Source: Escherichia coli
GTDB lineage: Bacteria > Pseudomonadota > Gammaproteobacteria > Enterobacterales > Enterobacteriaceae
Length of the DNA: 64,000 nt
Strand: one strand, 5' to 3'
Assembly (NCBI RefSeq): GCF_965641715.1
Contig: NZ_OZ282453.1
In this document: positions 53,402 to 55,430 of the stretch, in pieces
Layout of the letters: each line of letters starts with the position of its first letter
Position numbering within the stretch: the first letter of the stretch is position 1
Made by a program: the position numbers and the translations under genes
The notes under the pieces: model-generated
The model's database searches: none
Seen by the model: the letters and a program-made list of their open reading frames with translations, nothing else
What the model was told of the DNA's origin: nothing

Positions 53402-53743
53402 TCACCGTGCCGTGGTGTTATGGCAGCGACGCAGCAGACCTGTAGCCTGCCTCGCCCGCAAAATATCGACCGCACGAAGATAAGGCATCTGTTCCTGCCA
53501 GCTAAATCCTTTCCTGTCGATACGGATCAATTCGTACTTCTCTACCAGAAAATTGACGGCATCGACCAGAGTGATCCCGGCGTCTATGTGTTCCTGAATC
53601 ACCTTTTCATTGTTGAATGGTGTGTCATTAAGATTCAGCCCGTAGTGCTGCTCCAGCAGGCGGGCCAGTAATATTTGCCAGACCACGACGGGCGACAGAT
53701 AAGACGTCGTCGCCCGCAGCGTCGTTGCAGGAATAATTTTCAT
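53402..53743 (-). CDS. CbtA/YeeV-family type IV toxin
   Basis: [53 protein letters not shown] resembles YeeV/YkfI/YpjF. Confidence 0.8.
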
Positions 53744-53773
53744 AACGATGTTCCGTATTAAGGAGGTTAAAAC

Positions 53774-54109
53774 TCAGCGTTGAGTGGGATAAATAGCGAT
53801 ATAGACGTAACCACAGGAACCCAGCGTATCGGCTTCGCAGGTTAGTCCTTTGGCGTATAGCGTGACGGTACGTTTTTGGCAGGCGGAGAGTTCACCGTCA
53901 GCCAGTTTCAGCTCCAGTTGTTTCATCAGCACCGGAAAAGCCTGGTCGATATGCAGCAGATCCGGGGAGCTGAATTTCCCGGTGATTGCGGCCCGATCAG
54001 CCAGGTAATGCAGGTTATGTCTTTCCTGTACCAGTCGAGCAGTGAAGCGTGGTGTTACGGTACAGGGAAGCCCCCATTCTTGTTGCATGACCTTGTCCTT
54101 TTGCAGCAT
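53774..54109 (-). CDS. CbeA/YeeU-family antitoxin
   Basis: WGLPCTVTPRFTARLVQERHNLHYLADRA ... TVTLYAKGLTCEADTLGSCGYVYIAIYP resembles YeeU/YagB. Confidence 0.8.
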   Translation of the reverse strand: MLQKDKVMQQEWGLPCTVTPRFTARLVQERHNLHYLADRAAITGKFSSPDLLHIDQAFPVLMKQLELKLADGELSACQKRTVTLYAKGLTCEADTLGSCGYVYIAIYPTQR

Positions 54110-54582
54110 TACAGCCAGCCCCGTTCGGCAAAAGAGAGGACATCCCCCGCCCCAATAATGAAATGATCCAGCACTCTCACTTTCACCAAATCCAGTGTCT
54201 TAACAATATTCGTTGTAATAAGTCTGTCGGCCCGACTGGGTTCCGTCACGCCGGAGGGATGGTTATGCGCAAGGATCACTGCTGCGGCATTGTGCCGTAG
54301 CGCTGATTTCACAATCTCACGGGGATGTACTTCTGTGCTGTTAATCGTGCCGAGAAATAGCGTTTCGTGTTCCAGCAGTCGGTTCTGGTTATCGAGGTAG
54401 AGCACAACAAACATTTCCCGCTCCTGTCGTACCAGATTCAGTTGCAGCCAGGTTTTTGTGGCGTCAGAGGAAAGAAAAGATTCGCCAGGATTGCGTTGAT
54501 ATTTCTCCAGCAGACGCATCGCACGGCGGATAACGCGTTGTTCACTCACCGAAAATACCGGTGTTAGCATCAGTTCAGACAT
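54109..54582 (-). CDS. RadC-like JAB-domain protein (YeeS/YkfG/YfjY family)
   Basis: 157-aa ORF with JAMM-like HNHPSG motif. Confidence 0.8.
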   Translation of the reverse strand: MSELMLTPVFSVSEQRVIRRAMRLLEKYQRNPGESFLSSDATKTWLQLNLVRQEREMFVVLYLDNQNRLLEHETLFLGTINSTEVHPREIVKSALRHNAAAVILAHNHPSGVTEPSRADRLITTNIVKTLDLVKVRVLDHFIIGAGDVLSFAERGWL

Positions 54583-54611
54583 CGTGTTTCCTTTACCATT
54601 AATAGCGTTGT

Positions 54612-55430
54612 TTATGAGGCCAGTTGCAACATGTTTTCAGCCATCACCCACAGGGCGCGGTTGAGTTTGATATCGCCGTCGATGCCTTTAATGGCGCGGG
54701 TGTTCGTGCGACCACCTTTTGCCGTGCGCCCGTTTAACCCGCCTTTGATCAGGTTCTCCTGAATACGCTGGTAGGTCGTCCACAGATCGCCGGATTCATC
54801 CTGCCAGCGGCGCGGAGCCAGCAACTGGGATTCCGTCACTGGCTGGTGCTCTTCGCCAAAGCGGTAAGTCAGCGCCGCCTTTGCCAGCGCCTGTTGCGCA
54901 GGGGGAGGCAGCATCAGCGACTGCATGGCATCGAGTTTCTCTTCAACCTGGTCAAAAACACTGAGGACTTCAAAAGCGCCTTCAATCACTCTCTCCACCA
55001 CATTGCCTTTATGCGGTACCCGTACTTCACCAAACGACTCGCCGCAGACCAGTCCGTTACAACAAACAGATCGAAACAGCCCTGGCAGCATCTGATAAGA
55101 ACTGGAACCGTCATGGCTGTTGAGCAGAATAATTTCCGGCACCTGGTTGCGATTGATCTGGTCTTCCCGGCGCAGACGCAGCATGTGTTTTGTATGCTCA
55201 CGTTTACCCACATCACGAACGCGGGTCTGGCAGGCAAAGAAAGGATGAAATCCTTCACGCTGGAGGTTATCGAGCAGGGTAATGGTGGGAATATAGGTAT
55301 AGCGTTCGCTGCGTGATTCGTGCTTATTTTCCCCGAATACGCTGGGGACATACTGCATCAGTTCGTCATGCGTTAATGGGCGATCGCGACGGATTTGATA
55401 TACGCGACCAAAGCGGCTGGCTAATTTCAT
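54612..55430 (-). CDS. DUF932-family protein (YfjQ/YafZ-like)
   Basis: 272-aa ORF in the typical position upstream of the RadC/CbeA/CbtA module. Confidence 0.6.
   Translation of the reverse strand: MKLASRFGRVYQIRRDRPLTHDELMQYVPSVFGENKHESRSERYTYIPTITLLDNLQREGFHPFFACQTRVRDVGKREHTKHMLRLRREDQINRNQVPEIILLNSHDGSSSYQMLPGLFRSVCCNGLVCGESFGEVRVPHKGNVVERVIEGAFEVLSVFDQVEEKLDAMQSLMLPPPAQQALAKAALTYRFGEEHQPVTESQLLAPRRWQDESGDLWTTYQRIQENLIKGGLNGRTAKGGRTNTRAIKGIDGDIKLNRALWVMAENMLQLAS

Follow-up and report, generated by a model that had tools for sequence, protein, structure and literature searches.

A CbtA/CbeA-family toxin-antitoxin block near the distal end of an Escherichia coli leuX island

What is the block of four genes at positions 53402-55430, on the minus strand, of a 64,000-nucleotide (nt) stretch of Escherichia coli DNA, and what might it do for the element that carries it? 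We analysed this whole stretch, hereafter the window, from contig NZ_OZ282453.1 of RefSeq assembly GCF_965641715.1. The region is very probably one more copy of the gene block that P4-integrase-type ("CP4") islands of E. coli conserve near their distal end, with a CbtA/CbeA toxin-antitoxin pair at its core. Stabilisation of mobile elements is an accepted role of toxin-antitoxin systems.

Identity of the four genes

The block is bounded exactly by the outer limits of four consecutive open reading frames (ORFs) in the ORF listing of the window. Lengths are in amino acids (aa) and matches are to Pfam profiles.
54612-55430, minus strand: DUF932 protein, YfjQ/YafZ homologue, 272 aa, first gene in the block (PF06067, E = 1.7e-52)
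54109-54582, minus strand: RadC-like JAB/JAMM-domain protein, YeeS/YkfG/YfjY(LfgB) homologue, 157 aa (PF04002, E = 6.9e-44)
53774-54109, minus strand: CbeA/YeeU-family type IV antitoxin, 111 aa (PF06154, E = 7.4e-47)
53402-53743, minus strand: CbtA-family toxin, 113 aa, nearest to YkfI (PF06755, E = 1.8e-56)

All four proteins exceed the curated Pfam cut-offs by far and cover their profiles essentially in full. We compared them with the CP4-44, CP4-57 and CP4-6 proteins of E. coli K-12 MG1655. The original prediction had named these four genes at exactly these limits and assigned them to the yfjQ-yfjY-yfjZ-ypjF / yeeS-yeeU-yeeV type of module. Both statements are borne out, with Pfam E-values of 1e-44 to 1e-57 and with identities of 54-82% to the three paralogous sets of K-12. 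These identities lie in the same range as those among the K-12 paralogues themselves (57-84%). The four-gene block is an observation far beyond chance. In the genome of E. coli A30, RefSeq names the first two genes 'DUF932 domain-containing protein' and 'RadC family protein', and the pair 'type IV toxin-antitoxin system YeeU family antitoxin' and 'TA system toxin CbtA family protein'. In PHROGs, the block matches only families without an assigned function, apart from a generic 'DNA repair protein' family for RadC.

The toxin belongs to the YkfI lineage. It scores 189 bits against PF06755 (cut-off 25) over profile positions 1-110 of 112, and alignment to the MG1655 proteins gives 77% identity to YkfI, 70% to YpjF and 57% to CbtA (YeeV). 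Its length of 113 aa had been correctly predicted, but the accompanying remark that this is shorter than typical does not hold: YkfI also has 113 aa, and YpjF and CbtA have 109 and 124 aa, respectively. The toxin ends at the same alignment column as YkfI; among the four aligned toxins, only CbtA has an 11-residue C-terminal extension. Truncation was rejected on the strength of this shared end and the profile coverage. F65 is invariant in the four-way alignment; when it is substituted, CbtA, YkfI and YpjF no longer bind FtsZ (PMC5624674). Residue 15 is Y in the window toxin, R in CbtA and C in YkfI and YpjF; the Y15 variant could be used as a comparison point in work on MreB recognition by YkfI/YpjF-lineage toxins. 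A sequence search of the PDB returned no CbtA-family structure.

The antitoxin resembles a different K-12 relative. It scores 158 bits against PF06154 (cut-off 27) over the whole profile (positions 1-101 of 101) and matches the solved structures of YeeU (2h28 and 2inw, E ~1e-44 to 1e-46) and YfjZ (2ea9 and 2jn7), all four at E = 1e-36 to 1e-46. Its identity is 65-67% to CbeA/YeeU, and 58% each to YafW and YfjZ. For both members of the pair, alignment to the K-12 families thus yields the clear homology that had been predicted (57-77% for the toxin, 58-67% for the antitoxin). The cbeA gene has an alternative start at an internal ATG (54088), giving 104 aa instead of the 111 aa from the ATG at 54109. 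The internal ATG is preceded by the better Shine-Dalgarno sequence (AAAGGA, at a distance of 7 nt), and the N-terminus would then match those of YafW and YfjZ. Judged by these identities, a YkfI-lineage toxin is joined to an antitoxin closest to YeeU, making this a putative mixed-lineage pair.

The action of the pair can be sketched by analogy with the K-12 paralogues. CbtA binds FtsZ at its H6/H7 loop and MreB on its flat face, blocking division and elongation (PMC5624674). YkfI and YpjF act likewise, and YafW and YfjZ each neutralise either toxin (PMC5371832). CbeA binds and bundles FtsZ and MreB filaments and does not bind the toxin (Masuda et al. 2012, in the summary that PMC5624674 gives of it). 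The 113-aa toxin would accordingly be expected to bind the same loop of FtsZ and the same face of MreB, and to block both division and elongation, leaving lemon-shaped, non-growing cells. The antitoxin would neutralise it without touching it, by binding and bundling the FtsZ and MreB filaments.

The two upstream genes are equally intact. The RadC-like protein scores 149 bits against PF04002 and 156 bits against NCBIfam TIGR00608 (cut-off 134), and matches PDB entry 2qlc at E = 3e-27. Its JAMM metal-site motif, read off the translation, is complete (H106-x-H108-x7-S116-x2-D119), and it is 54-57% identical to YeeS, YkfG and YfjY. The DUF932 protein scores 179 bits against PF06067 over positions 1-227 of 227, and is 81% identical to YfjQ and 82% to YafZ. 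It falls in PHROG 12094, which has no assigned function, and a PDB sequence search gave no structural relative (best E 0.003, presumably chance).

YfjY, also called LfgB, is reported to act as a zinc protease on MqsA, which it degrades in vitro, and cells deleted for it are sensitised to H2O2, acid and heat (PMC10846083). On this basis, the RadC-like protein might be the key member of the block, an LfgB-like stress protease that cleaves a host regulator such as MqsA, with the toxin-antitoxin pair as a passenger. The kept JAMM motif and the degradation of MqsA by LfgB favour this view. However, the protein shares only 54-55% identity with LfgB, the block lacks the antirestriction gene found at the head of the K-12 operon, and MqsA-type palindromes (ACCT-N2-4-AGGT) are not found near the block; the window has two, both at ~33.1 kb. 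We consider this role improbable, and with no palindrome near the block, the regulation of CP4-57 is not transferable to it.

Unlike all three K-12 copies, the window block lacks the first and third members of the K-12-type five-gene set of antirestriction, RadC, DUF987, antitoxin and toxin genes. A tblastn search of the whole window with all K-12 versions of the antirestriction (YafX/YfjX-LfgA) and DUF987 (YeeT/YkfH/YpjJ) proteins found neither (best E = 0.13), and YeeW, YkfF, YkfB, YafY and YeeR likewise had no significant tblastn match there. The spacing agrees: the DUF932 and radC genes are 29 nt apart, and the radC stop overlaps the first cbeA ATG (54109) by 1 nt. With gaps of only 29 nt and at most 20 nt, there is no room for an antirestriction or DUF987 gene. 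The cbeA stop (53774) and the cbtA start (53743) are separated by 30 nt on the same strand, with the antitoxin gene immediately upstream; the corresponding spacers in K-12 are 20, 20 and 88 nt.

Each K-12 island resembles the block in different respects. CP4-6 (yafZ ... yafX-ykfG-ykfH-yafW-ykfI) holds the closest toxin, YkfI, which is alike in length (113 aa), C-terminal end and F65. RadC, antitoxin and toxin follow in the same order, the block lies near the island end in both, and the DUF932 protein is 82% identical to YafZ. CP4-6 has YafX, YkfH, and ykfF/ykfB/yafY between its DUF932 and RadC genes, whereas the window block lacks all of these; in addition, YafW is only 58% identical to the window antitoxin, and its spacer is 20 nt rather than 30 nt. 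CP4-44, home of the founding type IV toxin-antitoxin system CbtA/CbeA (YeeV/YeeU), holds the closest antitoxin and shares the Pfam families. Its gene order, yeeS-(yeeT)-cbeA-cbtA, is matched here without YeeT, but its toxin is only 57% identical, is extended by 11 C-terminal residues and has R15 in place of Y15, and its downstream gene is the short yeeW, whereas the window block is followed by a full DUF4942 gene. CP4-57 (yfjXY-ypjJ-yfjZF, or lfgA-lfgB...) is 70% identical in the toxin, 54-55% in RadC (LfgB) and 81% in DUF932 (YfjQ). It has lfgA and ypjJ, which the window block lacks, and its DUF932 and RadC genes lie 6.4 kb apart, while those of the window block are adjacent. The block is a known, RefSeq-annotated module, peculiar only in its compact gene set and its mixed-lineage pair; relative to K-12, the missing antirestriction and DUF987 genes and the mixed pair are minor variations.

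The arrangement suggests that the four genes are transcribed together. The spacers are short (29 nt; a 1-nt overlap or 20 nt, depending on the cbeA start; 30 nt) and no convincing terminator interrupts them, so that the RadC-like JAB metalloenzyme and the DUF932 protein, encoded upstream of the pair, may be co-transcribed with it. This would parallel yfjXY-ypjJ-yfjZF of K-12 CP4-57, reported as a single operon (PMC10846083). A terminator scan of 52300-56800 performed no better than on shuffled sequence, and a promoter candidate upstream of DUF932 (55479-55450) was set aside because the promoter scan was at chance level. In an Rfam scan of the whole window, no family reached its gathering score, and no known small RNA or antisense regulator could be tied to the block.

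The radC gene directly abuts cbeA and is possibly translationally coupled to it. One could read this compact arrangement as a protease-gated type IV toxin-antitoxin unit, in which the JAB enzyme controls the level of the antitoxin or of a repressor. We regard this as very unlikely; if true, the mixed pairing would be field evidence that the antitoxins are indifferent to the toxin and act on FtsZ and MreB.

Several points weigh against taking the block as a working CP4-type toxin-antitoxin module. The intact integrase and leuX are known from relatives only, and would be expected beyond position 64000, past the window. The promoter scan of 52300-56800 gave 5 candidates against 7.2 expected by chance, and the operon is read from spacing only. 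Like the operon structure, the molecular mechanism is carried over from the K-12 paralogues; the natural role of the pairs is uncertain there too, and their phenotypes come mostly from overexpression. The toxin has Y at position 15, where CbtA has the MreB-relevant R15 and YkfI and YpjF have C. Finally, the toxin is of the YkfI lineage and the antitoxin of the YeeU lineage, and neutralisation in this particular pairing is predicted by analogy.

The leuX island and its distal boundary

We found that the block sits in the leuX tRNA-Leu island, between the nan/fim genes and leuX. The window follows the order of the E. coli chromosome (yjiN/mdtM/iatD/uxuB, fim, nanC/nanM) and then enters the island. 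In the collinear genomes A30 and SCU-115, tRNA-Leu (leuX) forms the end of the island, and a tyrosine integrase gene adjoins it. This integrase has the domains of IntA of CP4-57 (Arm-DNA-bind_3, Phage_int_M and Phage_integrase) and is 39% identical to it. The island features in the window are as follows.
50365-50553, minus strand: 62-aa C-terminal remnant of a second P4-type integrase (BLASTP to the SCU-115 leuX integrase, E = 3e-22)
50808-50821, no strand assigned: decayed copy of the leuX 3' end (TGGTGCGAAGGCCG against TGGTGCCGAAGGCCG), distal end of the P4-type island
57214-57828, plus strand: YagK/YfjJ-family protein (PF11726, E = 3.1e-38), 28% identical to YfjJ of CP4-57 (E = 2e-26)
57946-58164, plus strand: AlpA-family helix-turn-helix protein (Phage_AlpA, PF05930, E = 3.2e-10)
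59165-60178, minus strand: GTPase of the island backbone (Pfam MMR_HSR1), 43% identical to YkfA and 42% to YfjP by BLASTP
60218-60988, minus strand: WYL/helix-turn-helix regulator of the island backbone (Pfam WYL), 42% identical to YfjR

The distal boundary can be placed from two signatures. The leuX 3'-end copy TGGTGCGAAGGCCG is a degenerate 14 nt with one deletion relative to the 15-nt leuX 3' end. It is preceded by ~190 nt of the window (50620-50806) that align with the spacer between integrase and leuX in SCU-115, with 21 of 22 positions matching at 50767-50788; the tRNA-like core comes after this spacer. The 62-aa remnant is the only integrase sequence within the window; it matches residues 336-417 of the SCU-115 protein with an internal deletion, and is annotated in A30 as a partial integrase. 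From the spacer homology and the leuX copy it follows that the block-carrying island ends at ~50.82 kb and borders there on an older element in decay, of which the integrase remnant is the start. The layout points to a tandem of two P4-type elements at leuX, of which the inner has decayed. CP4-57 shares the YfjP, YfjR, YfjJ and AlpA backbone genes and the P4-type integrase with this island, but is integrated at ssrA rather than leuX.

The toxin gene lies 2.6 kb from the distal end, in agreement with the statement by Wen et al. (PMC5371832) that such toxin-antitoxin pairs are located near the attachment sites of P4-like elements. The block marks the distal part of a leuX island of P4-integrase type and helps to place its boundary at ~50.8 kb. 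Beyond this, it adds one natural variant of the CbtA/CbeA family and has little significance other than for annotation.

This position also bears on what the pair may do for the island. If the island were lost and the antitoxin with it, residual toxin would arrest the cell, and the pair would thereby stabilise the leuX island. Such a maintenance role is compatible with the molecular mechanism proposed above, as it concerns the role only. The pair lies 2.6 kb from the island end beside a second pair, CopG/ParE; the block genes are intact and conserved; and stabilisation of mobile elements is an accepted role of toxin-antitoxin systems, as PMC10846083 also states. However, a lower stability of CbeA-family antitoxins relative to the toxins is only assumed here, and because such an antitoxin works on the target rather than on the toxin itself, it is not obvious that the classic addiction logic applies. 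We consider island maintenance a possibility, but a doubtful one.

The original prediction had called the block a cryptic-prophage module of a CP4-family integrative element. The second half of this description stands: the backbone homologues, the leuX attachment remnant and the integrase of the relatives all identify a CP4/P4-type island. The prophage label does not, as relatives of the toxin occur in only one of 50,697 phage records, and that record is a 3.2-kb fragment without annotation. Nor were phage structural genes found among the scanned island ORFs (Pfam and PHROGs) or in the RefSeq annotation of the collinear relatives. Given the near absence of the toxin from phage genomes, 'cryptic prophage' is a name of historical origin; the element is more accurately described as an integrative island with a P4-type integrase.

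Among 72,556 plasmids, 67 encode a relative of the toxin, of which 34 are typed as conjugative. A function in establishment after transfer has been proposed for the RadC and CbtA domains of conjugative elements (PMC5512222). Applied here, the block would be an establishment set used on entry into a new cell: the DUF932 protein and the RadC-like enzyme would process incoming DNA or host factors, and CbtA would transiently delay division until the element had integrated. The conjugative plasmids, the virtual absence of the toxin from phages, and the antirestriction gene (yafX or yfjX) in the block of other islands fit this picture. Against it, the antirestriction gene is missing from the window copy, the window has no transfer genes, and the support is purely contextual. 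We think this role unlikely.

Conservation and mosaic structure

The block is conserved and intact in other E. coli. Its four genes are 100% identical at the DNA level to those of A30, and the surrounding 4.3-kb stretch is 99.6% identical. DNA related to this stretch is present in 598 of 5426 complete E. coli genomes, and at least 80% of it is found in 126 of them. SCU-115 differs from the block genes by 19 synonymous and 17 non-synonymous changes, a pooled ratio of non-synonymous to synonymous change per site (pN/pS) of 0.29, with limited power. This value is consistent with purifying selection on the block genes.

These data argue against the block being an inert remnant of a decayed element, with no current function. 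Decay is evident in the neighbouring region (the integrase remnant, an insertion sequence fragment and a truncated nanS), and CP4-44 of K-12 is non-excisable (PMC5371832). However, all four ORFs are full length relative to their profiles, catalytic and contact residues are intact, pN/pS is 0.29, and the same intact genes occur in more than 100 genomes. Because the ORFs are intact and conserved, this is the least likely of the role readings, and we give it very little credence.

The wider comparison with A30 reveals a recombination mosaic. A30 is collinear with the window over 32400-61358 at 99.0% identity overall, and its differences are clustered: none at ~53000-58000, which includes the whole module, 17 in 52500-52999 (within the DUF4942 gene) and 38 in 58000-58499. 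Similarity to A30 stops at 61358, after which the window has the TIR and type I restriction arrangement of SCU-115 and related human isolates. Over the module stretch, identity to SCU-115 is 97%, and the right-hand part of the window is found at ~95% in SCU-115 and several human isolates (ZH063, SaT040 and others). We take ZH063, SaT040 and similar isolates to be sequence type 131 (ST131). Between the window island and the leuX islands of A30, SCU-115, ZH063 and SaT040, the cargo on both flanks differs: on the right it involves genes for TIR and type I restriction, on the left large hypothetical genes. This differing cargo likewise shows a mosaic.

Neighbouring genes and other parts of the window

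The block is flanked by the following genes.
55667-56620, minus strand: 317-aa hypothetical protein, ORF directly upstream of DUF932, its stop closely followed by a hairpin
52454-53287, minus strand: DUF4942 protein, 277 aa from the RefSeq ATG, the ORF reaching a TTG at 53311 (PF13708, E = 6.8e-70)
52129-52401, minus strand: CopG/RHH antitoxin of a type II pair (Pfam RHH_1, E = 4.5e-7; RefSeq-annotated in A30 and SCU-115)
51850-52125, minus strand: ParE/RelE toxin of the same type II pair (Pfam ParE_toxin, E = 1.3e-15; RefSeq-annotated in A30 and SCU-115)
50938-51744, minus strand: HTH_3 (Cro/C1-type) regulator, 268 aa (Pfam HTH_3 in the N-terminal part, E = 1.7e-13), last gene before the island end

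The DUF4942 gene starts 114 nt downstream of cbtA. Its product is the usual downstream neighbour of cbtA in such islands and carries the same annotation at the same place in A30 and SCU-115. PHROGs connect it weakly with DNA methyltransferases (phrog_6263, E = 1.5e-12); it shows no similarity to K-12 YeeW, and the best match in a PDB sequence search was at E 0.09, presumably chance. The CopG/ParE pair, unrelated to CbeA/CbtA, follows directly, so that two toxin-antitoxin pairs stand back to back at the island end. The HTH_3 regulator has a long, very acidic C-terminal region. On the other side, the 317-aa protein matched nothing in Pfam, NCBIfam, PADLOC or PHROGs; it is conserved in A30, where it is annotated 'hypothetical protein', and its gene is shorter (720 nt) in SCU-115. 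PADLOC returned no model match for the four block proteins, the DUF4942 protein or the 317-aa neighbour, and thus supports no known defence system here.

More promising material lies elsewhere in the window, in two large genes at 42.3-49.3 kb and a lone ThsB-like TIR gene. The large ORFs, both on the minus strand, encode 1581 aa (44530-49275) and 743 aa (42302-44533) and overlap by 4 nt, and are therefore probably one operon. They lie in the decayed element, between the integrase remnant and an HNH endonuclease gene, and RefSeq calls both 'hypothetical protein'. Neither has a match in Pfam, NCBIfam, PADLOC or the PDB sequences. The 10.8-kb stretch around them (40100-50900) is covered to at least 80% in only 5 of 5426 E. 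coli genomes; lower in the match list, ZH063 and others reach 80% coverage at ~95% identity. The two genes are possibly uncharacterised cargo or a defence system.

The TIR-domain protein (325 aa; 61217-62194, minus strand) matches PADLOC ThsB1 over its full length (E = 3e-157), and its gene has the WYL regulator on one side and a type I restriction-modification M subunit on the other. Neither the window nor the annotated relatives show a ThsA partner; the protein may be a Thoeris ThsB on its own or belong to another kind of TIR system. Finally, two patches of the window (5001-8000 and 20001-21000) have a GC content of 0.32-0.41, compared with ~50% for the chromosome, and the first holds a 750-aa ORF (5154-7406). 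These patches are probably older horizontally acquired segments.

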